Positions 10,984-54,000 of a DNA stretch of 64,000 nt are shown piece by piece. Position 1 is the first letter of the stretch. The number at the start of each line of letters is the position of its first letter. The translations under genes and the position numbers were made by a program. Origin of the DNA: Porphyridium purpureum (lineage: Eukaryota); NCBI GenBank assembly GCA_008690995.1, contig VRMN01000006.1, forward strand, positions 558,001 to 622,000, given 5' to 3'. The notes beneath the pieces were generated by a model, which saw nothing but the letters and a program-made list of their open reading frames with translations, had not been told where the DNA came from and did not search any database.

Positions 10984-12213
10984 ATGGCAAAGACGCGCAG
11001 GTTAGAGCTCGTGTTCAACCCGGTGTCCGGCCCAGGAGGGCTCGAGGCCGGGCTTGAAGTGCTGGAGCTGGTCAAGAGGATTCTACGCGAGGAGTTTGAC
11101 GAGTTTGGAGTGTGCGAGACCAAGCCGGATCTTGGATGCTACGACATTGTGACCAAGCTGCTGAGTGATGACCTCGAGCGCGTGAAGGGCGAGGATGCCA
11201 CCAGCCGGAAAAGAGAGCAGTGGACCCTCGTCGTGAGCGGCGGGGATGGGTCGATTCACGAAGCTGTTAGCGCAATGCGCAGATTTGAAAAGAAGCTTAA
11301 CTCGTCCGAACAGGAGCTGTACGTGATGCCGCGACTGGGGGTGATTCCGCGCGGCACGGGAAACGCGGTGGCGCTCGCGTTGGGGATTCCGACCGACCCT
11401 ACGGCGGCATGCGCGCTGATATGCACGAGCCACACGAGGACGTTGGACGTCGCCCACGTTTCGTTCCCCGGGCAATTGGACGACGATAGGAGCGAGAATG
11501 ATCCTTCGCAAGATCGGTACTGCATTCTCCTTGCCGGCGTGGGGCGAGAGGCGATTATGACTCGCGAAGCGACGCGCGAACTAAAGTCCAAGATTGGCGT
11601 GCTCGCATACGGCTGGGGAATCTTCAAAGCGTGCGTCGACGATGCTGAGAAGTTTGAAGTCAAGCTCATTTTGGACAATGTGCACGATGCGATGAAATTT
11701 TCATCCAGACGAAAGGGAACGGTTGTGGACATTGATCGACTGACAGTGACCAACATGAAGGCTATGGGAGTCACCATCTCCAACCTTGCACCCATATCCT
11801 CAGTCATGTCTGCCGGGATTGGCGATATTGTGCCCGACGACGGACTCCTGGAGTGCGTCTGCTTTGCACCCGAAACACGGCTGGACGGCATCCGGGCCAT
11901 GTTTAGCATGATGATGTCTGGCCTGTTCAATGTGCGTCTCCTACGACCCGAGGTGTTTGGACTGCGCGCCAAAAAAGTGGTTCTCAACTGCAACCCGCCC
12001 AAGCAAGTCGTACTGGACGGCGAGCTACTTGGAAAGACCCCCATGCAGCTAGAATGTGAGGCCAAGACTGTGGAGATCATTGCGCCGCCCAAGAAGGAAG
12101 TGAACACGCCCATGCGCAAGTTCCGCAACATGATGCGTAAAATTCAGGGCGCCGTGGCCATATCGGTGGTCATTGCTGCGTCCAGCACCGCCGAGAGCGT
12201 ATGTCGAGTGTAG
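10984..12213 (+). CDS. Diacylglycerol kinase-like lipid kinase (YegS/BmrU/DAGKc family), copy 1
   Basis: VFNPVSG, SGGDGSIHEAV, GVIPRGTGNAVA, LAGVG, DDGLLE, VLDGE; hydrophobic C-terminus. Confidence 0.9.
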   Translation: MAKTRRLELVFNPVSGPGGLEAGLEVLELVKRILREEFDEFGVCETKPDLGCYDIVTKLLSDDLERVKGEDATSRKREQWTLVVSGGDGSIHEAVSAMRRFEKKLNSSEQELYVMPRLGVIPRGTGNAVALALGIPTDPTAACALICTSHTRTLDVAHVSFPGQLDDDRSENDPSQDRYCILLAGVGREAIMTREATRELKSKIGVLAYGWGIFKACVDDAEKFEVKLILDNVHDAMKFSSRRKGTVVDIDRLTVTNMKAMGVTISNLAPISSVMSAGIGDIVPDDGLLECVCFAPETRLDGIRAMFSMMMSGLFNVRLLRPEVFGLRAKKVVLNCNPPKQVVLDGELLGKTPMQLECEAKTVEIIAPPKKEVNTPMRKFRNMMRKIQGAVAISVVIAASSTAESVCRV

Positions 12214-12366
12214 GATGGTGCGCGCGTGCTGCTCACATGCGCTCCGCAGTAGAGCAATTACGACCGCGATGGACAACACCCTTCTCTCTCATTCCTGACG
12301 TGGAGTGCCACCTTACACGTGGAAGTCATCTCTTGGGACGCCCGTACTGAAACACACCAGTTTTGT

Positions 12367-12374
12367 TATATAAA
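12367..12374 (+). promoter_or_regulatory. Putative TATA box (TATATAAA)
   Basis: About 120 nt upstream of the ATG at 12491 in otherwise GC-rich DNA. Confidence 0.5.
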
Positions 12375-12490
12375 TCCCGGCAGCTCGCGGAATATTTTCT
12401 GGCAACGACTGCGACTCGAGTGGGAGTAGCTGGGTTGGCGACTGCCACGGCTCTTCGACTACACGACGGTTCCCGGCAGGCATTCGCAGG

Positions 12491-13711
12491 ATGGAGAGGA
12501 CTCGCAGGCTGGTGCTGGTGTTCAACCCGATTTCTGGGCCCGGAGGGCTGGAGGCCGGCTGTAGAACGCTCGAGGAGGTGAAGAAGGTGTTCTCCGCCGC
12601 GTTCGACGAGCTGGAGGTGCACGAGACCAAGCCGGATGTGTCGTGTTATGACATTGTCACGGACGTGCTGCATAAAGATGTGAAGACAGCTCTGGAAGCG
12701 GAGGATCAGATGGAGCAGTGGACGTTGGTGGTGAGTGGCGGCGACGGCTCCATCCACGAGGCCGTCAGCGCCATGCGCAGGTTTGAGAAGAAGCTCGACG
12801 ACGCCCAGCGCGAACGGTACGTTATGCCACGTTTGGGCGTCATACCGCGCGGAACAGGCAACGCAGTGGCGCTGGCACTGGGCATTCCGACAGAGCCGAT
12901 GGCCGCATGTAACTTTATTTGCTCTGGTGGAACAAGAAGGTTGGACGTCGCACAAGTGACGTTTCCAGACCAGGAGAACAGTCGAGCCGAAAAGGCACCC
13001 TCTCAAGAGCGGTATTGCATTCTTCTCGCGGGCGTTGGTCGCGAGGCGTCGATGACGCGAAACGCCACCCGCGAGCTAAAGTCTAAGATTGGTATGCTTG
13101 CATATGGTTGGGGCGCCATGAAGGCGTGCTTTGCGGAGTCAGAAAAATTCGAGGTTTCGCTAGTACTGGACGACGCACACGACGTGATGAAGTTCTCTTC
13201 GAAGCAAAGGGGCTCGGGTACCGTTGTCGATATCGATCGGCTCTCAGTAACCAAGCTGCATGCAATGGGCGTCACCGTAGCCAACTTGGCACCGTTCAGC
13301 ACGGTGATGTCGTGTGGTATTGGCGACGTGATTCCAGACGATGGGCTTCTGGAATGTGTTTGCTTTGCGCCGGAAACACGTTTAGATGGATTGAAAGCCA
13401 TGCTGAGCATGCTCATTTCGGGCTTGTTCAACGTACGACTCTTGCGCCCCGAGGTGTTTGGCATGCGCGCGAGAAAAGTGCTGCTCAAGTGCGACCCACC
13501 CAAAGAAATTGTTCTGGACGGAGAATTGCTCGGTCAGACGCCGATGCAGCTTGAATGCGAGGCCAAGACTATTGAGATCATTGCACCTTCGAAAAGAGAA
13601 ATGAATTCGCGCATGCGCCGGCTACGTCACGTGTTGCGAAAAGTCCAGGGCACAGTGGCCATGGTGGTTTTCGCAGGGCTGGCGAACAAGGCTTTGAAGT
13701 CGATGGCATAG
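12491..13711 (+). CDS. Diacylglycerol kinase-like lipid kinase (YegS/BmrU/DAGKc family), copy 2
   Basis: Same motifs as copy 1 and colinear with it; tandem paralogue. Confidence 0.9.
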   Translation: MERTRRLVLVFNPISGPGGLEAGCRTLEEVKKVFSAAFDELEVHETKPDVSCYDIVTDVLHKDVKTALEAEDQMEQWTLVVSGGDGSIHEAVSAMRRFEKKLDDAQRERYVMPRLGVIPRGTGNAVALALGIPTEPMAACNFICSGGTRRLDVAQVTFPDQENSRAEKAPSQERYCILLAGVGREASMTRNATRELKSKIGMLAYGWGAMKACFAESEKFEVSLVLDDAHDVMKFSSKQRGSGTVVDIDRLSVTKLHAMGVTVANLAPFSTVMSCGIGDVIPDDGLLECVCFAPETRLDGLKAMLSMLISGLFNVRLLRPEVFGMRARKVLLKCDPPKEIVLDGELLGQTPMQLECEAKTIEIIAPSKREMNSRMRRLRHVLRKVQGTVAMVVFAGLANKALKSMA

Positions 13712-15764: not shown

Positions 15765-15838
15765 CGCTCTCGAAGAGATTGGCATGTCGGAGGGGGCGAT
15801 GGATGGGTGGGTCGGGATGTGGAGAAGGCGACGGTAGG

Positions 15839-18478
15839 ATGGGCGAGTACGTGTTCAGCGTGTGCGCCGAGACAGTGCCCGGCGAAGTGGTTGTGCGGAT
15901 CGGGAGCGATCATGGCTGGAAAGCAGAGGACGCGCAGGTGCTGAAAACGTCCGCACAGACGTACCCGCTCTGGAGCTCGGATCCAGTCAAGTATCCTGTC
16001 GCACAGATCGGGCAGCGCGTCACCTACAAGTATGCCGTGCGTAGCACGCAGGAGAATGGGTGCGTTCACTTGCGGTGGGAGGCTGAGGGCGGCACCAAGA
16101 ACCGCTCAGTGCCGCTGGAGGCGGAGAAGCTGAGGGTGTTTGACGGCTGGTTCAATCGCATTTCAGACGTCCCCTTCGGGTTCCACGATCCACCCAAACC
16201 AATGCCTCCCATCGAGAAACCAATCAAGCCTCACGGGAAATACGTGCTTGTGCTCGGGTCTTCAGTGGCGGTGGGGTGCAATGCATGGAAGCTGGAGGGG
16301 TGGGCGTACTTGTTGGGCAAGGCGCTGCGTGAAAGCTTTGGTCACTCATTGGTAAATACGTCTGAATCTGGCTCAAATATCGCGCGCGCAATCCAGCGCT
16401 TCCCAGATGTCGTGGCCGTGGTGCCTGAAACACCAGCCTTTGTTGTGATTTCGCTGTCTCTGGGCAACGAAGGAATATTCCATTGCAAGCCGCACGAGCG
16501 CAACGCCGTGTATGCACGATTTATCAGCGGCATGGACAAGCTTGTGAGCATGGTGGAAAAAATAGGCGCAATTCCTGTCGTAGGTGGAGTCTACCCAAAT
16601 GGCGACTGTATTGTGGACGCACATATGTACTTCATTCGCGAGGCACGCGCACACTTCAAGCGTAAGTACAGATACACGATCGAGTGGTTTGACGACCTGT
16701 CTGATGATTGCGGACGTTGGAAGGAAGAGTATGCTAGTGATAATGCCCACCCTAATACGACAGGACACCAGGTCATGCGCGAATGCATCGACCTGGCGCA
16801 GTTTGCACCGCCAATGAAAGGTGCTGCAGACGCGGCCGCCAGCGAGACCTACTCTGATCAAGACCACAGCAAGGTTTCCATTGCTGATACCAGAAGAGCC
16901 CCTTCTATCCACGCGGATCTGCCAAGCACCGAACGGGTTCTCGTTGCAGTGCTTGGGGACACTTTCCAAATTTCGTGCGAGTTCGATCAGAACAGCGTAA
17001 CCAGTGTTTACTTAACAAATACACGCCAGGACTCGGTTGGCATCAACAAGGACTGGCTTGAATTGCAAAATGCGCTCCGAGCGTCAGGAAAGCTTGAACC
17101 GGGGCTGTACGTACGAAAGTACACAAAGCCGAGCGACCGCACGTTGGGACTGTCGCCAATTGTTTCACTGTTTGTAGGGCCCAACGGCACAATTGAAACA
17201 ACAATGGATATCGGTCCCGGCGAGCGGCTTGAGTTTCAACACTCAAGGAACGCTTTGTTCTGCCCGTCGTCCACGGATCTCTTATTCTATGACGGCGTGG
17301 CGGTCGTCATTTTCCACGACAGTCCAGAAGATATTTGGATCAGCAATGAGACAGATACAGAGTACAACTTGCACCCAATGTGGAATGAGGTGCGATGCGC
17401 GATGCGATCGATTCCAGGCGGTGTGTATGACGCCAAATCCAGCGACGGCGCGGTGCCAGATTTTTCGACCCTTCTCATAGGTAACGATGGGCTAGCTAGT
17501 CGGGTCAAGATTCCGCCGCGCACCGCTCGTGTTTTCAAACGAACCATGGCTCTTGCCGAGCTTGAGCGCTTTGCGCTCGTGCCACTAGGAGCACGATGTA
17601 GCATGCGGATGCTGCTGCATGAGTTGCAATATGACGGCCCATGCTATCCGTTCGACTTGACGCGCGTGAGCTCCTTAGCCGACGCAGCAGATATAGTATG
17701 GAGGGGATTTAGCGACATGTGGAACCCGGAACACTTGCACTACAGCCATGATGACGGACGCGTCTTTCATACACGTTGGAACTCGCTGTCGTTCGCGCAC
17801 GAAGTCGAGGAGAATGACGACCCTGTGAACGAGATCGGGCCCATTTTCAAGCGAATGGGTGCCAGATACGCGCGTCGGGCTGAACGCTTTGACTTTGTGC
17901 TGCGGAACGCCAACCAAGTCATTCTCTTACGAACTGGCGAGAGCAATCGACAGGAAGTCTTAGACTTCATGGGCAAGGTGCGAGCCAAGTACAATCGCGA
18001 CAATGCCATCCGGCTGTTCCTGTTTTCGCGGCAAGACTCGGGCGAATTTGGGCAAATTCCTGGCGTGCGCCACTTTCAACACGAGATGGACCCGGACCGC
18101 ATGAACGACGACGCGGGGTACCGTACGCATTGCGCGCATCTGCTCAAGCACATGCTGAACGAGACGGGCGTGACGTCGCGCAACTTGTTCTGGTGCCCGA
18201 ACAACCCCAACGCCAAGCCGGTGTCCGCATCGAACGCGGGCCGTAGCGACACGGGCCTGATGCGCTCTGTCGACAGCGCCGAGACGCTTGCGCTCAAGTC
18301 GCTGAGCAGCGAGCTCCAGCTCGACCGTCTGTTTGCCACGCACGCGCACGCGTCGCCTCCTCCTCACATCGCGACGGCCGACACCGTCTCCATCGAGTCG
18401 CTGTCTCTGCCCGACGAACCTCCCAAGGCGTCTCTTCCCCAGCACGCCCCGCTCGCACACGCGCTTGAGCAAGATTAA
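15839..18478 (+). CDS. Multidomain protein: CBM20 + SGNH/GDSL hydrolase + duplicated unknown domain + DUF1796 (putative papain-like peptidase)
   Basis: CBM20: T.PGE.V..IGS...W, YPLW, YKY, WE...NR. SGNH: LGSSV, SG, LGNE, DNAHPN..GH. DUF1796: PLGARC...L......YPFD, RRAERF...L......LLR. Confidence 0.8.
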   Translation: MGEYVFSVCAETVPGEVVVRIGSDHGWKAEDAQVLKTSAQTYPLWSSDPVKYPVAQIGQRVTYKYAVRSTQENGCVHLRWEAEGGTKNRSVPLEAEKLRVFDGWFNRISDVPFGFHDPPKPMPPIEKPIKPHGKYVLVLGSSVAVGCNAWKLEGWAYLLGKALRESFGHSLVNTSESGSNIARAIQRFPDVVAVVPETPAFVVISLSLGNEGIFHCKPHERNAVYARFISGMDKLVSMVEKIGAIPVVGGVYPNGDCIVDAHMYFIREARAHFKRKYRYTIEWFDDLSDDCGRWKEEYASDNAHPNTTGHQVMRECIDLAQFAPPMKGAADAAASETYSDQDHSKVSIADTRRAPSIHADLPSTERVLVAVLGDTFQISCEFDQNSVTSVYLTNTRQDSVGINKDWLELQNALRASGKLEPGLYVRKYTKPSDRTLGLSPIVSLFVGPNGTIETTMDIGPGERLEFQHSRNALFCPSSTDLLFYDGVAVVIFHDSPEDIWISNETDTEYNLHPMWNEVRCAMRSIPGGVYDAKSSDGAVPDFSTLLIGNDGLASRVKIPPRTARVFKRTMALAELERFALVPLGARCSMRMLLHELQYDGPCYPFDLTRVSSLADAADIVWRGFSDMWNPEHLHYSHDDGRVFHTRWNSLSFAHEVEENDDPVNEIGPIFKRMGARYARRAERFDFVLRNANQVILLRTGESNRQEVLDFMGKVRAKYNRDNAIRLFLFSRQDSGEFGQIPGVRHFQHEMDPDRMNDDAGYRTHCAHLLKHMLNETGVTSRNLFWCPNNPNAKPVSASNAGRSDTGLMRSVDSAETLALKSLSSELQLDRLFATHAHASPPPHIATADTVSIESLSLPDEPPKASLPQHAPLAHALEQD

Positions 18479-22500: not shown

Positions 22501-22809
22501 GGCAGGCGCACCAATCGTGTTTCTCGGAAGCGTCTCAACACGTGTCTATCCGTGGCATGGTGCCTCGACAACCTCTCTCTTCCTTCGTTTCTGTCTTCGC
22601 ACACACGCTCTTGCGATGCACGCGCCGCCCCATTTCGCTTATCGGTTTCTCTCACTCTGATTCATTAGCCGTTCAAACCATTAACTTCCTCGCCCGCACT
22701 GTACCTCCATCGCACTTTTTCAAACATTCGAAAACGTGCGGCAGGGTGGACAGCTTGGGAGCAGAGGCAACCGAGTGGAGACTAGTTTGCGGCATGTTGT
22801 GCGGCGTGA

Positions 22810-24252
22810 ATGCGCGGCATGGAGGCCCACGCTGGGGCCGCTGCAAGTATGCTTGAATCTCCGCTGGCTCCGGATGATGCCGTCCTTCTTTCGGGAGAGA
22901 AACATGATGCAGCGGGCGAATGGAGCCTGCTCGACTTTGAGCTGCGGACGAAGCTCGGCCATGGGGCGTTTGGGGTTGTGTATGAGGCAGCGGTGTGTGC
23001 GCAGAGTCTGGTGAAAGCTGAGCAGAGGCATTGGCCGCTTGTGAATGCGTGTGTGGCGCTTAAAGTGATTCCACGACACCCACAGAGCGCCGGACGCACG
23101 CCGAGCCGTACGAAGGACGTTGAGCAATATGAATATGCGCGTCGAGTACAGGAAGAGATCGATATTCATAGCGTTATACCGCCCCATCCAAATGTTGTGT
23201 CCTACCTGGCTTCGTTTCAAGATGAGACGAGCATCTACTTGGTCCTGGAACTGTGCAGTGGCGGGTCGGTACAAAGCTACCTCGATGCTCTTTTGCCACC
23301 TGTGCGGACACATCAGCTGCAGCCGAATCACGACACCGAGACTGAAAGGCAGTTGGCCAACTACTGGCGGGATCTTGTGAGCGGCGTGGCGTTTTTGCAT
23401 CGATGCTGTGTCGTACATCGCGACCTCAAGCTGTCCAACCTGCTAATTGACCATCAAGGCACACTCAAGATTGCCGACTTTGGGTCGGCCGCATTTCTGT
23501 ACTCTTCGCAAGACCGCCGCTTTACGCTCGTGGGCACACCAGGGTATATCTCTCCAGAGATCCGTGACGGATATGGGCACGGGTTTGGGTGCGACCTGTA
23601 CTCGATCGGGTGCGTTCTTCATGCGCTCTGGACACGGGGCGAACCGCCCAGCGAAACTGACGCACAGTATACGATTCAGGTGGCCCTTCCAGGCTCTGTG
23701 CGGAGTACCATGTGCGCTCTTTTACAGCCGGATGCAGCACAACGACCAACCGCCGAGCAATTACTTTGCGAACTGGAGCCAAGTCGGAACGGTCATCAGA
23801 AGCACGTGAAAGTACCACTGAGAGACGTCACTGCAGACGTGGCAAACACGCAGAATAGGAACTCTTCTACAGCCACTCGCGACACGCAGTCGTGCTCGTC
23901 TATCGACCCAACCGCTGTGCGCTTGGGCAGCGACGGGGTGGTGGCCATACCAGGTTTGGGATGGGCGTCCCGGCTGAAGAGGGGAGATATTTGGCTCGGG
24001 ATCGATGGCCCCATGGCGGTTTCAGTCGTGGTCTCAGCGAATGGCAAGTATATGACCTTCTTCGCGGGTGCGGATGTGGACGCTCACGGAGTGCCGGTGT
24101 GGATTCCTGAGCTGGACACCCGTTTCAGAATACGTGACCTGCTGTGTTGTCCGGACGCGCCGCTTCGAGAATTCGTGTCGCAGCGGTTGAAAGCCGTCAA
24201 GCTGTTCAGCCGAAACTTGACGTATCAGCTCAGTACTGATGAGCGCTCATGA
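22810..24252 (+). CDS. Ser/Thr protein kinase, Polo-like (PLK4/SAK-like) with a single C-terminal polo-box-like domain
   Basis: LGHGAFG.VY, VALK, RV.EEI.IH, YLVLELC, HRDLKLSNLLI, KIADFG, T..GTP.YISPE, HG...D..SIG; C-terminal IPGLGWASRL..GDIW. Kinase call is strong, subfamily moderate. Confidence 0.85.
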   Translation: MRGMEAHAGAAASMLESPLAPDDAVLLSGEKHDAAGEWSLLDFELRTKLGHGAFGVVYEAAVCAQSLVKAEQRHWPLVNACVALKVIPRHPQSAGRTPSRTKDVEQYEYARRVQEEIDIHSVIPPHPNVVSYLASFQDETSIYLVLELCSGGSVQSYLDALLPPVRTHQLQPNHDTETERQLANYWRDLVSGVAFLHRCCVVHRDLKLSNLLIDHQGTLKIADFGSAAFLYSSQDRRFTLVGTPGYISPEIRDGYGHGFGCDLYSIGCVLHALWTRGEPPSETDAQYTIQVALPGSVRSTMCALLQPDAAQRPTAEQLLCELEPSRNGHQKHVKVPLRDVTADVANTQNRNSSTATRDTQSCSSIDPTAVRLGSDGVVAIPGLGWASRLKRGDIWLGIDGPMAVSVVVSANGKYMTFFAGADVDAHGVPVWIPELDTRFRIRDLLCCPDAPLREFVSQRLKAVKLFSRNLTYQLSTDERS

Positions 24253-24458
24253 TCGCGCCCGGCGTCTCTGACGCGGGCCATGTAATACTGCAAAACTTGT
24301 ATATTTAGTTGAAGACATTCACATGTTTGCCACGAAAAGCATGGCACAAGGCTCCGCGGAACGCAACCATCGCATTGGTATGCAGTCATGACACAGCCAG
24401 TGCACGACTTTACGCGTCTCCTGCCATAGTTAAATAAATGGGACTCCGCAAGTCCCGC

Positions 24459-25721
24459 TCAAGAACCGACGTGCACTTTGATGCTTTGACCTTGGCGTGA
24501 GCAGCATGACATCAGACACTGCCTTCCATCCTCCGACTCGCATTGGTCGCACATGCGGAACCAAGGATGCTCCAGAAGCTCGCGCGCGCTGGGGCGCTGA
24601 CTCGGATCGAACTGGAGCATTCGCGAGACCAGGTCGCGTCCCTCGGCTGAGACGTCGACCCACTCATCTTCCCAAATCTTGACGCCCATGCGTACCTGCG
24701 CAATTAGCCGGCTGATGCTTCCTGTCAAAGAGTACGGCAGCTTTTTCAGCAGCAGCAGGTACGCAATGATACCGATGGCCCAAATGTCACACGCGGCATA
24801 GTTGAAAATGCGGCGAAAGATAACTTCTGGCGCTGCGTAGAACGCTGTCCCCACGCTCCCCTCGCGGTAGATTTGGAAGCTCGACTTGGCCTTTGGGTCA
24901 AACAGGCACGCGCTGCCGAAATCGAGTAGCCGCAAGCCATGCGGGTCTGCCGGGCTACTTGCAAACATCAAGTTTTCGGGTTTGATGTCACGATGCGCGA
25001 CGCCGTTCTCGTGCAGTGTCCTTACAGCAAGAAGAATATGGCGCAAAACCCGCGACGTCGCCTTTTCCGTACTAAATGCATTATTCACCATGCTGTTGTG
25101 GAGCTCGCCGCCGCTCATTTTCTCCATAACCAAGTAGACTGACATGGCATCCTCCCAGACCTCGTACACTTTGACCAGGCCGTGAGTGATGGCGCCCGGG
25201 CCCAGGCTCCATGTAAGATCATGCACGCGGCATTCGGTGAGAATGTCGCTCACTAGCGTGCACGACTTATCCACCACCTTGACGGCAACCACATCGGGTG
25301 CCACTGCCGCCGCCGTGCGGGCCGTATCGCGTGGCGCGTACGAGCTCCTCACGGCCGAATAGACTGCTGCCGTCGCGCCCTTGCCGAGGCACTTTTCCAG
25401 TGCCCAGAACTCGTGAATATTTCCCTCGCACAGCAAGCCGCACGTCTCGCGGCTCAGCACAGGCGCCGCGGCCTTGACCATGCCTTCCAGCCGCTCTGCT
25501 TTTGCTTGTTGCTGGTGCTGGTGTTGCAGCTGGAGCTGCTGCTCGCGCTGCTGATGCGTCTCCGGATGCTGCTCTTGTTGACACTGCCTCACTTCACTGT
25601 ACAGCGCTCCCACGCTCGCGTCTACAAACTGCGCGCCGTTCTCTTCCTCGCACTCATGCTCCTCCTCCCTGTGTACCGGCCGCACATGCTGTCGCAACGA
25701 CATTCGCCGGTCATACCTCAT
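24459..25721 (-). CDS. CAMK-group Ser/Thr protein kinase
   Basis: LGKGATA.V, VAVK, MEKMSGGEL, HRDIKPEN, DFG, GTAFYAAPE, DIWAIG, W..VS.EGRDL...ML..DP..RPSA..LL.HPW. Q-rich N-terminus; start uncertain. Confidence 0.9.
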   Translation of the reverse strand: MRYDRRMSLRQHVRPVHREEEHECEEENGAQFVDASVGALYSEVRQCQQEQHPETHQQREQQLQLQHQHQQQAKAERLEGMVKAAAPVLSRETCGLLCEGNIHEFWALEKCLGKGATAAVYSAVRSSYAPRDTARTAAAVAPDVVAVKVVDKSCTLVSDILTECRVHDLTWSLGPGAITHGLVKVYEVWEDAMSVYLVMEKMSGGELHNSMVNNAFSTEKATSRVLRHILLAVRTLHENGVAHRDIKPENLMFASSPADPHGLRLLDFGSACLFDPKAKSSFQIYREGSVGTAFYAAPEVIFRRIFNYAACDIWAIGIIAYLLLLKKLPYSLTGSISRLIAQVRMGVKIWEDEWVDVSAEGRDLVSRMLQFDPSQRPSARELLEHPWFRMCDQCESEDGRQCLMSCCSRQGQSIKVHVGS

Positions 25722-26626
25722 CCCAATCACAGCGCCCCACAATCCGGCAAGTCCCTCTCTCTTCCTTCCTTCCTTTAACCCTCTTCGGGTTACAACAACG
25801 CTGGGCTAGAAAACGGCGAGCGCCGCGCAACGTTGACGGGCGCACGCGGAAGTTGCTTTCACGCGCTCTTCGCGCAACCACCACTGACAACCAGCCACAC
25901 AAAGACACACCCACACACACTCTCTCTCTTTCACTCCCACCTCTATTACAACCTTATTCACCTTCCTGCCTGGACACATTCTGACGTGACCACCCGCTCA
26001 ACAACCCCCCCCGATAAAGAAATAAAATAATAAAATAATTCATCAATTAATAATTATCAATTAAAAATAGAATCCGTGCCAAACATATCACAAAACGGCA
26101 TGAAAACGTCGGGACGGAAACACAGTGCGTGTTGCGCACTGTACACTACTGCGTTTGTGGTGCAGGTTGGGCGTACACCAACACCGCGAGGGTGTCTATT
26201 AAAACGGGCGTGTTTTACTAGAACATGATGAATGGAGGTACTGAGAGGTACAGTTTGTGCAGAAGTGGGCGGCGGTGTATGAGACGTGTATGTTTTGGGG
26301 TGGTTGGGGTATTCGGACGACGCGCTGAGATTGCACGTGGCGGTTTGGGCGCGCGCCAGTGGTCTGTGTGGAATGCGGACGCGTGAAGCGTCGAAAGTGC
26401 GTCATGAGTGTCGGTTCTGCCAGTTTCACGCGGTTTACATGTCGGCTAAGTTTAGCGTGTCCGGTAGCTGGAAATGGTCAGCCGCCCAGCGCATCGGGCT
26501 CGCGTGCAACTCACGATGGTGATATGCGCTGCTTGCCGCGCGCGGTAGAAACCGCGACGTGGGGCGAGCAATGGCGGCCCACTCGCGCGTGCGCACGGTT
26601 GCGAAGCGTCTTCGTCATGTCGTCGT

Positions 26627-37073: not shown

Positions 37074-37897
37074 TCAAAGAATTTCAGCATCGTCGTCAGA
37101 GCTGGAATCCGGTGCGGCGCTGCGGTGACCGGAACTGCTGGCGTCTGCCGCTCCGCTGACCACTTCACCGGCATCGTCGGTATCGCTTCCATCTTCACTG
37201 CTGTAATCGCCAGAACTGTCCTCGTCATCCATGCCCTTACGCTGTTTGGCCTTTTCCTGCATTCGCTTTACGAGCGCGTCATCTATGGGTTCGTTTCGAT
37301 CAAGCTTTCGAACGAGGCACCGCCGGTCTCGTTCTCTCAGCGAGGGAAGAATATCACGAATCTCGTTCTTTGTCATAGGAGCGCATTTCTCGGCGCTGCT
37401 CATCGAACCCGCACACTTCGCACAAACGTTCTTCTGAACTGCGCATTTGGGACACCGGCTGTGGTACGCAAGCATCACTGTCTTGTTCTCGCAGTCAATG
37501 CTGTCGAATTTCGTTGGAAAGTGGCCCACAGACAAGATGAGTTCTGGAAACAAAGTCACGGGACGGCCCGGGTCAGTCTACTGCACGTTTCGCACACGTT
37601 TGCTGCTGCACACACACTGAAGAACGCATCCTCTCTGCGTCCCAACGCACCTCCCAAAACAAAACAAAACGTCTCGCACACGTACCACTTCCGCGGCTGC
37701 GTCAAGGGCTTATACTTTCTGTAATTCTTGCGCCACTCAATGACATCTGCGCAGCGCTGGCAGCAATGCCTTGTCGCGGGCAGCTGCGCGATCTGCTTGG
37801 TCTTCTGCGAGCCCTTATTATGCTTGAACGCGTGCGTGTTCTGATGCGCCTGTGCGCGCGTGCGCTGCGCGTTCCCGCGCTGCGTACTACTACTCAT
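37074..37897 (-). CDS. C9orf85/DUF2039-like Cys-rich protein; exons 37897-37686 and 37500-37074
   Basis: MSS..GN, HQN..AFK, C.RC...IEWR..Y.KYKPL. The GTACGT donor at 37685 and CAG acceptor at 37501 restore KC..C..KTV..AYH..C..CA....VCAKC. Confidence 0.85.
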
Positions 37898-37914
37898 CTT
37901 CCTAACGTCAAAGC

Positions 37915-37938
37915 CACACACACACACACACACACACA
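37915..37938. repeat. (CA)12 microsatellite in the presumed 5' UTR
   Basis: Direct reading. Confidence 0.95.
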
Positions 37939-38018
37939 CTTCGGCACCACGCTTCCTTCATTGTGTTCCTCACCGCCCTCCGCCTCACCGCGCCGTCAAC
38001 CCGCAACTTGCCATGGGT

Positions 38019-42162: not shown

Positions 42163-44580
42163 CTACGATCGCTTGCCAAACTTTTCCTTAAGCTTGGTGA
42201 GCAATCCGCGAGAATGCTTCTCCTCACGCGGCGATGTCCACTTCTCGGGCCCCTTCAAGGACGGGGCACGGCGACTTTTCACCGCCTGCGATAAAGCGGC
42301 GCGACGATCTTCGATGGCTCGCCCAATAGATTGGCGACGGCTTTGTACTGCTTGAGAAAAAGCAGCGCCACGGTCGCTGATAACTTTGCCTCCATCTTTC
42401 AGGGCATGTCCTAAACCGCCTAGCCGATTTTTAAGGTTTCGGCCAAGCTCTTCGCGACGCTCATTCGCCACGTGCTGCATGGTCGTCTTGCGACTCGTCT
42501 CTGTCGCCTCGCGCTTATCCGCCTCCCGAGGTAAAGATCCGCCCTTCTTAACAGCTTGAGTGATGGCGTCGCGGCGATCATTAAATGCCTTGCCGAGATC
42601 ACTGCGACGCTCGTTGAGTGCCTGCGAAAAGGCAGCGCCACGATCTTGCATCGACTGTCCCCTACCATTGAGAGGCTTCGTCGTCGAAGACGGGGAAGGC
42701 CTGCCACGATCTTTCACGGCCTCTCCAAGCGTCCTGCCACGATCCTGGACCGCATGCCAAAGCGACAAGGCCGCATTTCGCGAGGACGATGGCGATCCTG
42801 TCGATTCTGTCGACTCTTTCGCTGGTGGCGATCTCGCTGACGATGAGCTGCCGGCCAGGGAATCGAGATATGAGCCAGAGAAGGCTCCACCATAAGATGA
42901 CCGCGACCCACTCACAACATCCGAGCTTCTGCCGTTTCCGTTACCTATCGCTTTCGTGTCCAGCGTCTTTCGTCGTCCAGCCGCCTCTGGCGCTTTCTGA
43001 ACAGGAATCGGGGCCGTAGCTTTCAACTCATACCGAGGTGACGGGGTGTGGCTTGAAACCGGAGTCATGTCCAATGCCGCGCAGGTCCACAGAAACACAT
43101 CGACAGCGCTTGAACCTCCTTCGTGCATGAAGAAATACTCCTCTGGAGAGCATGCAGGTATCACGGCCGGGGATGACACGAAATCCTCGCGGGGCATGAC
43201 GTCCGCGGCCAGAAGAATCCCGGACGGCAAGGCAGCAGTGATCGGAAGTCCTTCGGCCAACATACTGGATGGAGAATGGCTCGGCTGCAACTCGGTGTAC
43301 AAACTCGAAAGCACAGGGATGGGCAGCAACTCGACTTGTGCGACTGCAGGCAGCTCAGTCTTTGCCTCAGATTTAAAAACCGGCGCGACCACGTCAGTGC
43401 TTGGACTTAGGTTGAAATCCCGCCCGCTGTTTCTGATCTCCTGCAAGTCGGCCGAGATGGTATCCGCAATGGTCTCCAATGGCAACGTGACGCAAGGCAC
43501 CTTTCTGTGCACCCAAAAGGGATCCTCAATCAGGTTTCCAATCTCCTCGATCGAAAATAGCGCGCCGGCCACAAAGGCCATGATGGGTACCACAAGGATA
43601 CCCGTGCTCTTGACGAGAATAACCGGCCACGTGAAACACCACAACGCAATAAAGCGACTGGTATGTTGGGCGTAGACTAACGGCACTGGAGTCTTGACAA
43701 TACGCTCGCACGCGCCCATAGCGTCAATCAAGTCCGCAATGCCGCGCTCCAACGTATCGCGCTCAGCCCATGTGTTGCCGCCGCGAAAGCCTCGCTTTTC
43801 ATACACTTCCGCGGTGTAGCGCGACACCAGCCGCATAATATACAGCGGACGATTACGCGCCTTCACGTAAAGGTCCCAGTCTTCCACAGGAAGTAATTCG
43901 CGAATGTCCGAGCTTGGTTCCTGCTGCCCGCGCAGATGGTTGGCCAGACTCTTTGAGAACGCAGCCAACAATCGAATGAGCTTCTGCGCCATCTTGGGGT
44001 TGGGAGCGTCCGAGTCGGGTCCAATCCAATTCATGATACCGGAGGCCATGCTCCTCGAGCGATTCACAATATAGTTCCACAGCTTGCGGCCCTCCCAAAA
44101 GCGGTCGTACGCCGAATTGGTCCTAAACACAAGCAGCAAGCCCATGACGGTACCCAACATACTGTAGGGAACGGGAGCAATCTGCCAGATATGCCAGTCT
44201 GGGTAGCGCTCGTACAGGTAAAGCACGAGCCCCGATACAGCCGTGTTTGCAACCAGGTGCGATCCGATACGGCCCAGGACGCGGGAGCTGGGCCAGGTCT
44301 GCAGGCTCTTGACCCAATCAGCGGACGTATACCTCTCTGGCCGCACGATGGCCATGTGCAGATGCGACGCTGCGCCGCAGGCTCTTGATCCTGACCTACT
44401 CTTCACCCAGACGCGCCTTGTGCCAAACTGTGCAGCGACCACGCGACCACTTTCAAGAACGCCTCTGCGTTCGTCTCTGCTTCGGCGTCTGCTGCTGCTT
44501 CCGCTCGCGCTTGCGCTCGACACTGCCGCGCAGCGCGGTACAGCGGCATGCACCGCCATAAAGGCCGCGCTAGGCGCCAT
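42163..44580 (-). CDS. Plastid bestrophin-like anion channel (UPF0187/VCCN/BST) with ~420-aa C-terminal extension
   Basis: Transit peptide; LLLVFRTNSAYDRFWEGRK.W, GACERIVKTPVP..Y..HTSRF, IEEIG..IEDPF; the frame continues with an S/P-rich then 11-mer-repeat tail. Confidence 0.92.
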   Translation of the reverse strand: MAPSAAFMAVHAAVPRCAAVSSASASGSSSRRRSRDERRGVLESGRVVAAQFGTRRVWVKSRSGSRACGAASHLHMAIVRPERYTSADWVKSLQTWPSSRVLGRIGSHLVANTAVSGLVLYLYERYPDWHIWQIAPVPYSMLGTVMGLLLVFRTNSAYDRFWEGRKLWNYIVNRSRSMASGIMNWIGPDSDAPNPKMAQKLIRLLAAFSKSLANHLRGQQEPSSDIRELLPVEDWDLYVKARNRPLYIMRLVSRYTAEVYEKRGFRGGNTWAERDTLERGIADLIDAMGACERIVKTPVPLVYAQHTSRFIALWCFTWPVILVKSTGILVVPIMAFVAGALFSIEEIGNLIEDPFWVHRKVPCVTLPLETIADTISADLQEIRNSGRDFNLSPSTDVVAPVFKSEAKTELPAVAQVELLPIPVLSSLYTELQPSHSPSSMLAEGLPITAALPSGILLAADVMPREDFVSSPAVIPACSPEEYFFMHEGGSSAVDVFLWTCAALDMTPVSSHTPSPRYELKATAPIPVQKAPEAAGRRKTLDTKAIGNGNGRSSDVVSGSRSSYGGAFSGSYLDSLAGSSSSARSPPAKESTESTGSPSSSRNAALSLWHAVQDRGRTLGEAVKDRGRPSPSSTTKPLNGRGQSMQDRGAAFSQALNERRSDLGKAFNDRRDAITQAVKKGGSLPREADKREATETSRKTTMQHVANERREELGRNLKNRLGGLGHALKDGGKVISDRGAAFSQAVQSRRQSIGRAIEDRRAALSQAVKSRRAPSLKGPEKWTSPREEKHSRGLLTKLKEKFGKRS

Positions 44581-44989
44581 CTCAACCTCCTCCCGCCTTC
44601 CGACTCAGCCCAGCGCGCCGGATCGTCGACGACTTGGTCTCCGTCTGCTTCTCCCACCTCGCACCAGATCACCGCACTTCTGGTTCAAGCGCGTCGAGAA
44701 AATCTCCATTTCATAGTAAAATGAGTCCGTTTTATGATTTTCTGGGATGCTGCTCGCTGCGTGCGTTCTGCGCACCGGGCAACACGCTCGTGCCGCAGCA
44801 GCTGACTCGCAGGGCTCACGCCTGGAATGTGCGCGACTCGGCTTGAATTGCGTGGAGATATCGGTTCCGCGCCGAGGAGCACGGCGCTCGCCTGATGTGG
44901 TGTGATGGAACACGTGGTGCCGCGCAAGCGCGAACCTTGAGACCCTCGGCTGATCGTGCGTTCCAACGCATGCGGCAGAGCCGTCCACA

Positions 44990-45140
44990 GCGATCGTTCC
45001 AGGTGGATGAGAAGCAGAGACCACTGGGACTCGATTCCGCAATTGATTAGGCTCTTTGCTTGCGCTCGGCCGAGTGTGTGCTTCAGGTGCTTGACCCACG
45101 CAGCGGACGTATGGTACCTGTCCGGCCGCAGAATTTCCAT
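44990..45140 (-). pseudogene. Decayed 5' fragment of a bestrophin-like paralogue
   Basis: 45091-45140 encodes MEILRPDRYHTSAAWVK versus MAIVRPERYTSADWVK in the neighbour, with clear nucleotide similarity to ~44309-44355; the downstream channel motifs are absent. Confidence 0.6.
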
Positions 45141-45456
45141 GCGAAGAGGCGAACCCACGGGCGCGCCCCACCATAGAACACAGCACTGATGCTGCTCACA
45201 CTGTACGTGTGGAGTCCGGCTCCTACGAGCTGCAGCTTTTTGTGAAATTCGGAAAGAATGAGGATTTAGTATCGTTAGCTGGTATTCTTCGAGACGTTCA
45301 TAATCAATAATGGTGTCAACAGTTAAGTGGCATATCTGCGTGCCACGCGAAAGAGGTGCTTGCATCCACCTGCAAGCTTCTATGCAAGCAAAGTGCTCTC
45401 GTTGCTTTTGTGCTCGCATTCGCAGTCACGTTTTCAGTGCAGTAAATGTCGCTCGT

Positions 45457-46755
45457 TCATGCCTGCACCGACCCATTGCTCGTGTCGGTGTCTCCACGTA
45501 TAATCCGAGTGTTGCCCGTCTCCCCAACCTCCACGACTGCTCCTTGCTCCTCGACAACATTCTCTCTGAGTCGAAGCAAGCTCTCTGGTCTCCAAAGCAA
45601 GATATGTTCGACCTCCGTCTGAAGAGCTCCGTCGTCTTTGGCGCCATCCGCGAGGCGCTTGGCGAAAAAGTCCTCACCAATCTGACTCCTGATGTCCTGC
45701 AAGTCGCCAAAGAGTTCGTTTGCAAAGTTTTCCAATTTCAGGGTGACGCAAGGCACGCTTGGATTCACCCAAAAGGGGTCCTCAATCAAGTTGCGAATGA
45801 CCTCGACCGAGAAAAGTCCTCCTGCAACAAACGCAGTGGTAGGCACGACAAAGACGCCCACGTGCCGAACCAGAATGACTGGCCAGATGAGGCACCACAA
45901 CGCAATGATGCGGCTTGTCCACTCACCGTAGACCAGTGGCACGGGCGTCTTGGCAATACGTTCGCACATACCCATGTCGTTCATCAAATCCGTAATGCCA
46001 CGCTCCAAAATCTCGCGCTCCGCGCTGGTATTGCCGGCGCGGACGCCACGATGCTTTGTATATACTTCCGCCACGTACCGTGAAAAGAGCCGCAGAATGA
46101 AGAGCGGGCGGTTGCGTGCTACTACGTATCGCTGCCAGTCCTCGGCAGGCACCAGCTCACAAATGACCGGGCTCGGCTCCTCGATTCCGCGCAAGTGCTT
46201 TGAGAGGCTCATGGGGAACGCAGCTAGCAGCTTAATGAGCTTATGTGCCATCTCTGGCTCAGCTGCGTCAGATTCTGGACCAAGCCAGCTGAAAACACCC
46301 ACCGCCAAGGTGCGCGTGCGATTCATCACCGAGCCCCACACGGTGCATCCTTCCCAAAAGCGCTCGTACGCAGAATTGGTTCTGAAGCCCAAGAGGTTGC
46401 CCATGAAGCCACTCATAATCATGAATGGCACCGGGTCGAGCTGCCAGAGCTCGCAGTCGGGAAAGCCCTCGTACAGGCCGAACACCAGCGCTGCAACGGC
46501 AGTGTTAGCGATCACATGTGAGCTAATGCAGCGCAGAATACGCGACTTGGGCAGCGTCACAAGCGCTTTGACCCAGTAGTTGGGAGAGTACCTTTCCTCG
46601 CGAACGAGGGCCATCCGTACATCGCTTGCCTGGCGCGTGGTCGTTCGCCTCTGCGAACATGCCGCACCAACTGTGCAACGGCTCTCTTTTTCGAGCGCGC
46701 GCACGTGACGGGTTCTGGGATGGACCTGCGTCACGGCACTCACAAAGGCGGTCAT
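45457..46755 (-). CDS. Plastid bestrophin-like protein, divergent paralogue
   Basis: MTAFV transit peptide; FRTNSAYERFWEG, CERIAKTPVP, IEDPF. Confidence 0.9.
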   Translation of the reverse strand: MTAFVSAVTQVHPRTRHVRALEKESRCTVGAACSQRRTTTRQASDVRMALVREERYSPNYWVKALVTLPKSRILRCISSHVIANTAVAALVFGLYEGFPDCELWQLDPVPFMIMSGFMGNLLGFRTNSAYERFWEGCTVWGSVMNRTRTLAVGVFSWLGPESDAAEPEMAHKLIKLLAAFPMSLSKHLRGIEEPSPVICELVPAEDWQRYVVARNRPLFILRLFSRYVAEVYTKHRGVRAGNTSAEREILERGITDLMNDMGMCERIAKTPVPLVYGEWTSRIIALWCLIWPVILVRHVGVFVVPTTAFVAGGLFSVEVIRNLIEDPFWVNPSVPCVTLKLENFANELFGDLQDIRSQIGEDFFAKRLADGAKDDGALQTEVEHILLWRPESLLRLRENVVEEQGAVVEVGETGNTRIIRGDTDTSNGSVQA

Positions 46756-48874
46756 CGTGTCTTTCGCTGCAGCGCGACTGCGCGCGTGAAACAAAGGCGA
46801 CCTTTCTCTTCCAGGCTTCTGCAACCACCTTCTTGAAGCAGAGGATGTCTGTCTGTGCCTGTGTCTGTGTGGCGTGTGCACCGCAGCGTCAACCACTCCG
46901 ACCCATCAGTGCGTGACACACTATACAACGAGAAGCAGAATCCAGCCCAATCCATCTGATCCCCGTGTCTGCACTGTCAACACCTTTGTATTTCTCCAGT
47001 CTGGCCGAGCCGTTCGTCATCAGCGCACGTGTCACACACTGCGTTCGCGTCACTTTTGTAAGGTGCCGCTTTGTCAACCACCCGCCAGCAAGAAAGCAAG
47101 CAAGCAAGCAAGCAAGCGAGCAAGCGGTAGAGTCTGTAAATCGGGACCGACTTTGCTTTGTGCAACGTTGCGCGTGACTACAAGGACGACGTCGTCATCG
47201 GTACAACATGCCAATGCGGCTCTCTTCCAGAACGAGTTTCAGCCAGCTCACACATCCAGCTGACGCAACTTTCCACCTAATCGGTTTCGGTTCAAAATCC
47301 AGACAAACCGGTTTGCAACCGAGCAAACTGTACCATTACAACATAGACCCATTTCATAGTATCATGCGGATTACTATTACAACACGTGTGTTTTAGTACA
47401 GATGGCATGGGTGTACAGTTGTGGGTGGCATGGCTATTCTTATCGGTTCACATGAGGCGCGAGTGAGAAACCGTTTCGCGAGCGTGCTCCGACGCTGTGG
47501 CATGGAAGGGAAAGATCCACGTCGCTTCGTGGTATCATCCGAGTGAAAGAGATGCACTGGTCATCCACATTGCGCCGTAGATAGTGCGCAAGGAAGCACG
47601 GACGACGATTGCTTTTCGCGCTAATTCAATGGCGAGTGCACCAGTGACCGTCGCGCAACATGGCAAAAGGCGAGCAGAGGCATCTTCGATGCACACGCAG
47701 CGCGTGTCGTAATTGTGGTAGACCCGTACCGTACAGATGTAAAGTTGAGAGATATGCGTCAGGCTGGATCACACGCAGAACTGACTCGGGGCGGAACAGG
47801 ACGCCACGATCTCAGGTCAGCCACACAGGCAGTCAGCCAGCCGCTGATTCTGGCACATGAGCGTGTGCTCTGAAGCGACTGGGTGCCAGCGCTCGCGGCG
47901 TGCCATCCTCATTCGATCATTCTCCCTTTGCTGTGTCAAACTCATGGTTGATTCTTAGTGCTGGCTACGCGACCGAGGCCATCAAGTCAATACGCGTCGC
48001 AGAACTTCGATACAGAACCCGGAGCAGTGAAGCACGCCTCGGGCTTTCTCTGTTAGTCATGCCGGCGTGAAGTTCCTCAAGTCAGCCCAAACTAGAACCA
48101 AGCTGTTAAACAGAGGAGATGTTTTCTGCGGGTTTCGGTGCAGGACGTCCGTCACATGGCAAAGATGCGGTCAAAGCTCTTGGCCTGTGGCCGACCACCG
48201 GAATGATGCCTTTTAACTTCCCGCATGGACTCGCATCGGGTGCTTGAAGCAACCTCAAAGCAGCGTAGACCAACACAAAGCTTGTCCTCAAGTTTTGTGA
48301 GTACATCAACAGTGCAGACAGTACGCGGCAGCTTGACAGTTTAAAAAACTTCATTACGCAAGACGTGACGCAATTTGCCACACGCTCTGCAGTTTCATCT
48401 TCCTGACACGGTTCCGATCGACCTCTTGGCTTATAGAACACCGCTTTTTGGTCTTTTGGCCCCGGCTCCACCTTTCGGGGCTCGCCACCGAAATGCAGGG
48501 ACTGACCGACCCGTCGCCACATGGTCCCGATCGAAGAAGTGCCACGGTGAAGGACGACATAGAGTGCAGGGTGACGCTGACCTCACTCTGACGATGGATG
48601 GACCCAGGTCGGCTTACGACCGGTTGTGGATCCAGCCGAGGTTCAGAAACGACGATGAATCCGACTTGCCCACTAGAGACTCACGCACAACGCCAATTCG
48701 ACACGTGGACCATCGCAAATGCCAAGGCGACGGCATGCCGTCACTTGGAGATGAAACACACCCGCCTGTTGAATTCCTCTGTTCACGCTCGCCCCACCTT
48801 CCAACATTCAATGTTCGATGCATGGCACGTTTTACATCAAGTGTCGCTGTTGACGACACAAGGAGAATCCGAGA

Positions 48875-50464
48875 ATGGTTTTCGCGGGCTTTGTGGAGGG
48901 ATTCTCTGATGGTTTGGCACGTTGTTGTCGGCACCAGCAGCAGCTACTCCCCGGGGCAGGACATGGGTGTCAAGATGTAAACACACTGCCACAGTTGTCG
49001 TTGCGGCGTCGGTCACGGTGTCGATCTCAGTCGAGGTTATGGATGGCATCTCCACACTCGGGTCTGAACTTGCCTCCCGGTGACAAGGGTCTTCCGCTGC
49101 TTGGCGATTTTCTGAGCTTTACAAGAGGCGGCGCCGCCGGCTTTGAGGGCAAGTTTGAAAAGTACAAGTCCGACGTAGTGACGTCGCGGATTCTCACCAT
49201 CGACACAGTGCTCGTGAAAGGGTTTGACCAGATTCGTCCGATTCTGGAGAGTCCCATGGAACCGGCATGGCCAGGCACAGTGGATGAACTCCTGAAAGGC
49301 AGCATGCCTACGATCAAGGGCGAGCCGCACAAGGCGCGCAGAGAAATCATTTCGCGCATTGCCTTCAGCCGCGAACGCCTGTTGAGCTATGCGCCATTTT
49401 TACAGGCAAACGTGCAGCAGCTGATTGCCAACATTGAGGCGCGCACGGCGTCCAGCGCTCAGACATATGCTCGTTTCAGGGACGAGATTGAGGTCATGGC
49501 GTTCAACGCGGCTGCAGTGCTGTTTCTGGGCGCGGAAGACGTCTACTGCGGGGCGGGTTCTGGACAAAAGGGGGACGGCTTAGACATCGACGAGCGTCTA
49601 GCACAATTTCAAAGATTCGAAGGCGGTCTGTTTACAATCCCGCTCAAGCTGCCGTTCCTGCAAACCCCATGGTCCGAGGCACTGGATGCCAAAGCAGCGT
49701 TGTTGGCGTTCACGCGCCGTGCGGTGGAGAAGCGTATCGAGGCGAAGCAGCAATCAGGCCCCCTGCCCACGATCACAATCATGGACCACCTGGTCGACAT
49801 GCACCTGGAAGGCGATGGCGTGCTCACCAAAGATATTGTCATATCGGAGCTTTTGACGCTGGTGTGGGCAGGCCATTCAACGATCCTTTCGTTCATGCAG
49901 AGCATGGTGTACGAACTCTTCATGGGCGGCACGCACGACGTTGTGCGCAGGATTCGAGCCTCGGCCGAGTACCGCGCGGCTTTGGAGAGCGATGAGGCAT
50001 GGTCTCACTACCTGAAATTGATCATCAAGCCGGACTTGGTAAATGATACCTTGCTCGAGATCGAGCGTCTGCGCCCTCCCGTCCAGAGCGTGTTTCGTAA
50101 GCCACCGCCGGGTGGGATGCAGGTCGGGGCTTACCACATCCCTGAGGGCTGGACCGTACTGCTTTCCATCTTCTCGACGCATCGCGACCCGGTGTATTTC
50201 CCGGAGCCACTCGCGTTCCGACCGGAGCGATTTGCCGAGTCGCCCGAGCTCCGTAAAATCCTGCTCGGATTTTCAGGCGGGGCCCGAGTGTGCATTGGAA
50301 AGTACTACGCGGAGCTGTTTTGTCGAATCTTTCTGCTCACATTCCTTCGGCATGGTGACGTTGTCATGGACCCGGCACAGTCGCGGGAATTTTCAGTGCT
50401 TCCTGGGTATTCGCCCAAGGATGGCGTTCTCGGCCGATTTCAAAAATTGGCTTTGAGCGAGTAG
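48875..50464 (+). CDS. Cytochrome P450, probably plastid-targeted (CYP120/clan 85-like)
   Basis: Transit-peptide-like N-terminus without a signal anchor; LPPG..GLPLLG, AGHST (I-helix), EIERL.PP (ExxR), FRPERF, FSGGARVCIG (heme Cys). Confidence 0.93.
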   Translation: MVFAGFVEGFSDGLARCCRHQQQLLPGAGHGCQDVNTLPQLSLRRRSRCRSQSRLWMASPHSGLNLPPGDKGLPLLGDFLSFTRGGAAGFEGKFEKYKSDVVTSRILTIDTVLVKGFDQIRPILESPMEPAWPGTVDELLKGSMPTIKGEPHKARREIISRIAFSRERLLSYAPFLQANVQQLIANIEARTASSAQTYARFRDEIEVMAFNAAAVLFLGAEDVYCGAGSGQKGDGLDIDERLAQFQRFEGGLFTIPLKLPFLQTPWSEALDAKAALLAFTRRAVEKRIEAKQQSGPLPTITIMDHLVDMHLEGDGVLTKDIVISELLTLVWAGHSTILSFMQSMVYELFMGGTHDVVRRIRASAEYRAALESDEAWSHYLKLIIKPDLVNDTLLEIERLRPPVQSVFRKPPPGGMQVGAYHIPEGWTVLLSIFSTHRDPVYFPEPLAFRPERFAESPELRKILLGFSGGARVCIGKYYAELFCRIFLLTFLRHGDVVMDPAQSREFSVLPGYSPKDGVLGRFQKLALSE

Positions 50465-50578
50465 CGTCCCACTTTTGTCCGGCGCACGTTGCTTTGTTCC
50501 CACAAGCACCTTAAGGTCGGCCCATGCATGAGCAATCCAGTTTATAAGCCTACATGAAGTCGATATTTGAAGGAAAAA

Positions 50579-51823: not shown

Positions 51824-52151
51824 CTGCGATGCTTCCTATTTCCGTGCGGCGTTTTCCCCCACCCACCCACACACAGAGAGACACCGTTGTCTCTACCACC
51901 TTTCTCGTTCTCTCTCTTTCTCTTCCTCTTTCTCTCTCTCTCACCAACGTGCTACTCGCGCAATCTCCGCAAAACGCTCGAAGATGTTTATATCAAAACA
52001 AACCCATTCTATTAGTAACTTGTCCGCGCGCGTCAGCAGGTGGTCATGGCATGTGCGGTGGATGGACAAGGTTGGTGTGGATGGGGGAAGGAGGTCTGAG
52101 TGTTTATACAGCAGAGAAGAAGGCATTCGCAGTGTCCACCATGCGCGGCAG

Positions 52152-53921: not shown

Positions 53922-54000
53922 AAAACCGTTTTTCGGCTCGTTCGGTTTTCCGGGTTTTCCGGGTTTTCCGCGTTTCCGGTTTCCGGTTTGTTGGTTGGTT
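53922..54000. repeat. Imperfect tandem (CGGGTTTTC / CGGTTTC) array in a divergent bestrophin promoter
   Basis: ttcggttttc cgggttttcc gggttttccg cgtttccggt ttccggtttg read directly. Confidence 0.75.

Follow-up and report, generated by a model that had tools for sequence, protein, structure and literature searches.

A reduced PLK4-like kinase with one predicted PB3-type polo box from a likely acentriolar host

PLK4 is usually lost together with centrioles, and red algae are described in the available text of PMC6492006 as lacking centrioles and possessing polar rings. What, then, is a PLK4-like kinase doing in a 64,000-nt stretch of DNA (the window) whose host is likely to be acentriolar? An earlier note on this DNA described an open reading frame (ORF) with PLK4-like kinase motifs and a C-terminal resemblance to polo box 3 (PB3) of PLK4. 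The motifs (RVQEEIDIH, YLVLELC, HRDLKLSNLL, GTPGYISPEI and HGFGCD) are all present in the translation, as is the C-terminal segment VAIPGLGWASRLKRGDIW ... LREFVSQRLKAV, and the features of the protein are collected in Table 1. The gene is expressed from a single exon, its catalytic motifs are intact and PB1-PB2 is absent. We propose, with a probability of roughly 0.45, that it encodes a polo-family kinase that is likely a PLK4 descendant, bears one predicted PB3-type box and likely has a role in cell division at a centriole-free spindle pole, the polar ring.

Table 1. Features of the PLK4-like gene and its product (window positions).
Feature	Positions	Strand	Basis or remark
Reduced PLK4-like kinase, 480 aa (P0001)	22810..24252	+	Single-exon ORF; stranded RNA reads
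N-terminal extension, residues 1-43	22810..22938	+	No family match; M4 and M14 are possible later starts
Ser/Thr kinase domain, residues 44-319	22939..23766	+	Pfam PF00069, 153.7 bits
Ser/Thr-rich short linker, residues 320-376	23767..23937	+	Too short for PB1-PB2; DSG degron absent
D-box-like motif KVPLRDVT	23809..23832	+	Weak lead in linker
Predicted PB3-type polo box, residues 377-~470	23938..24219	+	Profiles, HHalign, Atlas model, Foldseek
PB3 signature strands, residues 378-396, V.IPG.GWAS.L..G..W	23941..23997	+	Nearly all of the sequence signal

Three stranded RNA runs from one study cover the whole ORF on the expected strand at a depth of about 1-17 in unsynchronised samples, and the reads contain no splice joints and no indels across it. 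A further contig, for which an RNA origin is a guess, runs without gaps over 22775-25894; it includes the whole ORF, and its upstream edge lies ahead of the ORF start. In a second strain the frame is open, and the nine letter differences (five silent, four conservative) are too few for a selection test. At 90% identity the protein is a singleton. The gene sits on a 975-kb contig in a region of densely packed, nearly intron-free genes, with a divergent HMG-CoA synthase gene on one side and a convergent kinase gene (24459-25721) on the other; reads from both strands occur at 24173-24506, where the two convergent genes overlap at their 3′ ends. These data bear on the possibility that the gene is foreign, whether as contamination, by transfer from an animal or as a non-PLK kinase with an acquired polo box. 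The size of the contig, the algal-type neighbours and transcription together with the flanking genes all speak against such an origin, and the GC content (0.572) and GC3 (0.61) fall within the ranges of nine neighbours (0.548-0.618 and 0.57-0.81, respectively).

Several other genes of the window merit mention in their own right. Two genes of the diacylglycerol-kinase family (YegS-like) lie in tandem at 10984-13708 (+), and the gene at 15803-18478 (+) encodes 891 aa in which a GDSL lipase-like domain is fused to a DUF1796 papain-like domain. DUF2039 is spread over two frames at 37077-37957 (-), matching profile positions 1-61 and 58-87, and probably marks an intron, few of which occur in the window. 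Five Bestrophin_2 (PF25539) genes, all with early-Phe plastid-type N-termini, are found inside 14 kb at 42166-55656. Plastid bestrophins have a role in algal carbon concentration, and that system may have expanded locally in this cluster.

At its N-terminus the protein has what is expected of a polo-family member, a Ser/Thr kinase with intact catalytic motifs: the GHGAFG loop (50), K85, E116, HRD (203), DFG (223), T-loop T239 and SPE (248). The only other Pfam match above cut-offs in the protein is the related PF07714, and the region of helix alphaG is shortened, with about 13 residues absent. The four best PDB sequences for the kinase are PLK4 (110-113 bits), followed by PLK2 (109), PLK3 and PLK1 (103) and Aurora A (92 bits); similarly, 14 of the best 20 non-self database matches (of 331) have a PLK4 PB1 domain and two are PLK1-type. 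Kinase profiles were made from fetched proteins classed as PLK4 or PLK1 by their C-terminal boxes. The PLK4 profile scores 178 and the PLK1 profile 167, and this difference of +11 bits has the same sign as in 7/7 left-out PLK4s and the opposite sign to 10/10 left-out PLK1s, although unrelated kinases span -24 to +22. Single residues are more evenly divided, since 17 diagnostic columns include four that are PLK4-like, five that are PLK1-like and eight that are neither. The T-loop is a hybrid, with an aromatic residue at -1 as in PLK4 (18/41 PLK4s, 0/21 PLK1s) and a basic residue at -2 as in PLK1 (20/21 PLK1s, 0/41 PLK4s). Moreover, the kinase motifs are not specific to PLK4, as two proteins of PLK1 architecture (P0013 and P0016) also have HRDLKLSNL and GTPNYISPEV. 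Aurora kinases are marked by a DFGW activation-segment motif and by the lack of a polo box; the activation segment here reads DFGSA, compared with DFGWS in the Aurora row (P0056), and a polo box is predicted, so that the protein departs from the Aurora family on both features.

Before the phylogeny with PLK1, PLK4 and Aurora, we removed 13 rows whose kinase domain was partial and 10 near-duplicates. A quick tree of 96 rows placed the protein inside the PLK family without resolving its position there. Two careful trees, both hand-thinned subsets, placed it on the PLK4 side, with support of 90/94 for 41 rows and 91/88 for 29 rows (thinned, with three long-branch PLK4-like rows removed). The branch is very long (2.0-2.7), and AU tests of the kinase leave every alternative standing: grouping with PLK1 (p 0.12), Aurora (0.23; one Aurora row, as in every tree), outgroups (0.074) or animal PLK4 (0.11). 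The earlier description of a PLK4-like kinase agrees with the best trees; membership of the polo family is supported, and a PLK4 lineage is likely, though the kinase alone does not prove it. As judged from its sequence, the kinase alone leans to PLK4 without settling the matter. A compact PLK4-like protein of 492 aa from an unnamed transcriptome (P0012), which has PB3 and only a degenerate PB1-PB2, pairs with the protein in two trees, possibly through long-branch attraction. As to a foreign gene, the AU tests leave room for grouping with animal PLK4, Aurora or the outgroups, and the PB3 signature fits animal PB3 (66%) more closely than non-animal PB3 (26%). In contrast, the best trees (41 and 29 rows) put the protein outside the opisthokont PLK4s, and together with the genomic context this makes a foreign origin very improbable.

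The C-terminal box is predicted to fold into six strands and a C-terminal helix, with an insertion of about 20 residues ahead of the last strand. A PB3 profile from 22 PLK4s of the whole-protein search gives 13.9 bits, a score that 0/2000 shuffles reach, and the best of the other 598 frames in the window scores 3.9 bits, which places the resemblance noticed earlier above chance. A larger PB3 set, which includes sequences chosen partly by this very region, gives 16.7 bits. Profiles of the other boxes give 1.9 (PLK4 PB1), -1.5 (PLK4 PB2), -1.3 (PLK1 PB1) and 0.5 bits (PLK1 PB2). In HHalign comparisons PB3 receives 71-79% over 98-99 columns, which 0/60 shuffles match with the PB3 set from the whole-protein search, vs. 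0.13% or less for the other boxes. Eight PLK1-type proteins reach 25-30 bits on the PB3 profile, above the 13-17 bits obtained here, and 96-141 bits on their own profiles. The box is therefore called PB3 because of the contrast with the other-box profiles and because of the pattern GW...L..G..W, which among 367 fetched proteins is found in 28/101 PLK4s and otherwise only in this one. Assignment of the second half of the domain to PLK4 PB1, made by eye, was ruled out by the profiles (1.9 bits, 0.13%). The sequence signal for PB3 is weak and appears confined to about 20 residues (378-396), residues 401-480 alone giving no profile signal; neither Pfam nor a PDB sequence search returned a polo box for the C-terminus, the three weak PDB matches being unrelated.

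The clusters nearest by Atlas features are polo boxes (0.82-0.84, at the level of a lead), and Atlas's own model, which was made without our alignment, has a PLK4 cluster as its first match (TM 0.51 over 84 residues, 374-476). A single-sequence AlphaFold model is poor (pLDDT 39.8), and its top five Foldseek rows are all human PB3 (E 0.07-0.3), a ranking that is not independent given that Foldseek also uses sequence. A model based on the PB3 alignment (pLDDT 72.8) has six strands and a helix, with PB3 in its top six Foldseek rows and polo boxes as its top seven VIA rows (Z 6.9-8.5; PLK1, PLK2 and PB3 tie), and being circular it shows compatibility only. At E 0.001 neither the single-sequence nor the PB3-alignment-based model had a Foldseek match. 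The accessible portions of PMC4530586 describe human PB3 as monomeric, with the STIL coiled coil held in a hydrophobic cleft, and have CEP152 and CEP192 binding PB1-PB2. Among the hydrophobic STIL-contact positions given there, 9/10 align to hydrophobic residues of the protein, in an alignment that is uncertain in mid-domain. Taken together, the C-terminus is very probably a polo box, which at the family level completes the polo arrangement with a predicted fold and weak scores, and the box is quite probably of the PB3 type, standing singly at the terminus as in PLK4.

The region between kinase and box accounts for the word reduced. Kinase and PB3 are separated by about 58 residues, compared with 139 or more in 101/101 fetched PLK4s that have both domains (139 in P0012, 308 in the next, median 451); PB1 is found in 100/101 of these, P0012 being the exception. 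Because the spacer is so short and the RNA reads contain no splice joint, PB1-PB2 is truly absent, and the earlier statement that there is no room for it was correct. Neither the cryptic polo box of PLK4 nor the tandem phosphopeptide-binding pair of PLK1 is present, as there is one box. Since PB1-PB2 is a defining feature of PLK4, we refer to the protein as PLK4-like and reduced rather than as PLK4. A DSG degron follows the kinase in 85/101 PLK4s, fungal ones being among the 16 without it, and none is found here. The linker does contain a D-box-like motif, a weak lead whose pattern was picked after the sequence was seen; it arises in 14/20000 linker shuffles and in 0/109 kinase-plus-PB3-scoring and 0/27 PLK1-type fetched proteins.

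One box and a D-box-like motif could also be expected if the protein had arisen as a PLK1/Polo-type duplicate, diverged and lost one of its two boxes, its likeness to PB3 being convergent or residual and its function that of a general mitotic kinase activated by Aurora. The AU value for PLK1, the five PLK1-like diagnostic columns, the basic -2 residue and the cross-scoring of PLK1 boxes on the PB3 profile can be cited in its favor. In contrast, scores of the C-terminus with the two PLK1 box profiles are -1.4 to 1.8 bits, with HHalign probabilities no higher than 0.07%; a strand motif of the W/F-x-D-Y type, present in 19/30 PLK1-type proteins, is missing; and both careful trees favor PLK4. Furthermore, the known red-algal PLK1s, as listed in the supplement of PMC5579357 and compared by eye, are well conserved, with both boxes in place. 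A PLK1 origin is accordingly quite improbable, and there is a good chance that the protein belongs to the PLK4 lineage and represents a second polo kinase in a host that also has an ordinary PLK1.

The setting in which such a kinase would act depends on the host. Eight ORFs, hand-picked from 43 in the window, have Phe within the first seven residues, a pattern that marks plastid targeting in red algae and glaucophytes according to the available part of PMC7038456. Pfam matches in 57 of 120 inter-gene frames and the taxa of the Atlas gave no decisive pointer to the group of the host. It is conceivable that the host has centrioles, for instance as a glaucophyte or a flagellated relative of red algae, and that an odd PLK4 does its usual basal-body job there; the early-Phe motif is indeed common to glaucophytes, some of which are ciliated. 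However, the genes are intron-poor and densely packed, marine RNA runs of one study contain 42-65% of the words of the window while glaucophytes are reported from freshwater only, and loss of PB1-PB2 fits a loss of CEP152/CEP192 docking. A red alga is the likely host, and we regard a centriolar one as very unlikely. PLK4 at acentriolar poles would not be without precedent, the available text of PMC5674873 describing Plk4 at such poles in the mouse oocyte. In the open-access literature we found no molecular description of red-algal polar rings. In Pneumocystis canis, one protein (P0010) combines a kinase of the PLK4 type with PB1 (86 bits), PB2 (58 bits) and a weak PB3; Pneumocystis is acentriolar, and this is likely another acentriolar PLK4. 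It contrasts with the loss of Plk4 in yeasts as stated in the accessible portion of PMC6070874, which has PLK4 missing from yeasts but retained in chytrids.

How might the protein work? Polo-like kinases are activated through the T-loop, and the kinase, which we infer to be active, would be activated at T239. Lacking PB1-PB2, it should be unable to dock on CEP152/CEP192 in the manner of animal PLK4, and with the degron gone, turnover of the beta-TrCP type (described in the available part of PMC7653357) would have been lost along with centriole docking. By analogy with human PB3 and STIL, the hydrophobic groove of PB3 would bind an amphipathic helix of a partner, which could both place and activate the kinase. 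There is an even chance that the kinase acts at the polar ring and times the duplication or maturation of that ring. The more specific proposal, in which a minimal kinase-plus-PB3 form of PLK4 was kept by red algae after centriole loss and licenses polar-ring duplication via a STIL-like helical partner, is unlikely. If it were true, the polar ring would derive, in remodelled form, from the pathway of centriole duplication, and PB3 alone among the PLK4 modules would be able to work without a centriole. A natural kinase-plus-PB3 protein would in any case separate the PB3 function of PLK4 from CEP152/CEP192 docking and would offer a first handle on polar-ring duplication.

The main rival is that the protein descends from a PLK4 whose centriolar task ended when the centriole was lost, leaving a remnant that drifts or has been repurposed away from the spindle pole, with PB3 kept for helix binding or folding in general. 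The long branch is explained as well by relaxed selection or a function outside mitosis as by a role at the spindle pole. The shortened alphaG region, the loss of PB1-PB2 and the DSG degron and the low RNA depth in unsynchronised samples agree with such a fate, as do yeast and Dictyostelium, whose acentriolar poles work without Plk4 or with one Plk in the partial accounts available. No orthologue was found either. The search with the C-terminal region retrieved only the protein itself among 225 candidates, the whole-protein search gave no red-algal orthologue among the best 120 of 331 matches, and residues 234-480 gave none among the best 150 of 546 from 1.84 billion representatives (best non-self, 67 bits); an eight-sequence profile gave none among the best 120 of 3670 matches, and none was found in metagenome contigs. 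These searches were swamped by animal PLK4s and have no bearing on true absence. On the other hand, drift is opposed by catalytic motifs and T239 that are all intact, by a predicted hydrophobic face of PB3 that has been kept, and by a frame that is open in the second strain, where the differences, few as they are, are silent or conservative. A drifting or repurposed remnant is rather unlikely; if correct, it would be a modest case of a centriole gene being lost step by step. We lean towards a working, PLK4-derived kinase at the spindle pole.

Comparison with known polo kinases places this protein at some distance from each of them. An algal Plk, that of C. merolae, was reportedly located at the spindle pole by Okamura and colleagues in 2017. 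It resembles the present protein in being an algal polo kinase, so algal Plks are already in print (PMC8944928, which in its available text cites Okamura 2017 for their existence). The supplement of PMC5579357 lists Plks from C. merolae and Galdieria; inspected by eye, they are of the conventional PLK1 type, carrying KLGN/APE motifs in the kinase and boxes in tandem, and our protein is far more divergent. Since the C. merolae protein listed there is of the PLK1 type, the gene of Okamura is probably a different one from ours. Likewise, because the published red-algal Plks are ordinary PLK1-type proteins, ours looks like a second, reduced kinase of the PLK4 lineage. Plk and Plk4 are a pair that split before LECA according to the available part of PMC6601020, so that PLK4 outside animals and fungi was already known; labels near Plk4 in its figure include a Klebsormidium and a Guillardia identifier, in a figure text whose order is unreliable. 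The accessible portions of PMC8480978, PMC12362390, PMC6559791, PMC3144413, PMC6070874, PMC8131943, PMC11430746 and PMC4409525 add little, and our search of the open-access literature turned up neither a kinase-plus-PB3 PLK4 nor a PLK4 from a red alga.

PLK4/SAK of animals, chytrids and other early fungi and several protists is nearest to the kinase by score and tree. It shares the HRDLxLSN, YISPE and HG motifs, the aromatic residue ahead of the T-loop Thr and, as predicted, a lone PB3 at the terminus with a hydrophobic face for helix binding. Unlike PLK4/SAK, our protein is only 480 aa long, has neither PB1-PB2 nor a DSG degron, is shortened in the alphaG region, carries an insertion of about 20 aa in PB3 and comes from a likely acentriolar host. 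With PLK1/Polo/Cdc5/Plo1 it has in common an N-terminal polo-type kinase, a C-terminal polo-box fold, the basic residue ahead of the T-loop Thr and a D-box-like linker motif, but it has one box instead of a tandem phosphopeptide-binding pair, and that box matches neither PLK1 profile. Finally, the kinetoplastid proteins KKT2 and KKT3 offer a precedent, in the text available, for a lineage that reuses a polo kinase with divergent boxes. The KKT3 box aligns with the PB3-alignment-based model, itself circular, at Z 6.9 (rmsd 2.7, 85 aligned), whereas KKT2 and KKT3 are described in the same partial sources as kinetochore proteins with a central zinc-binding domain.
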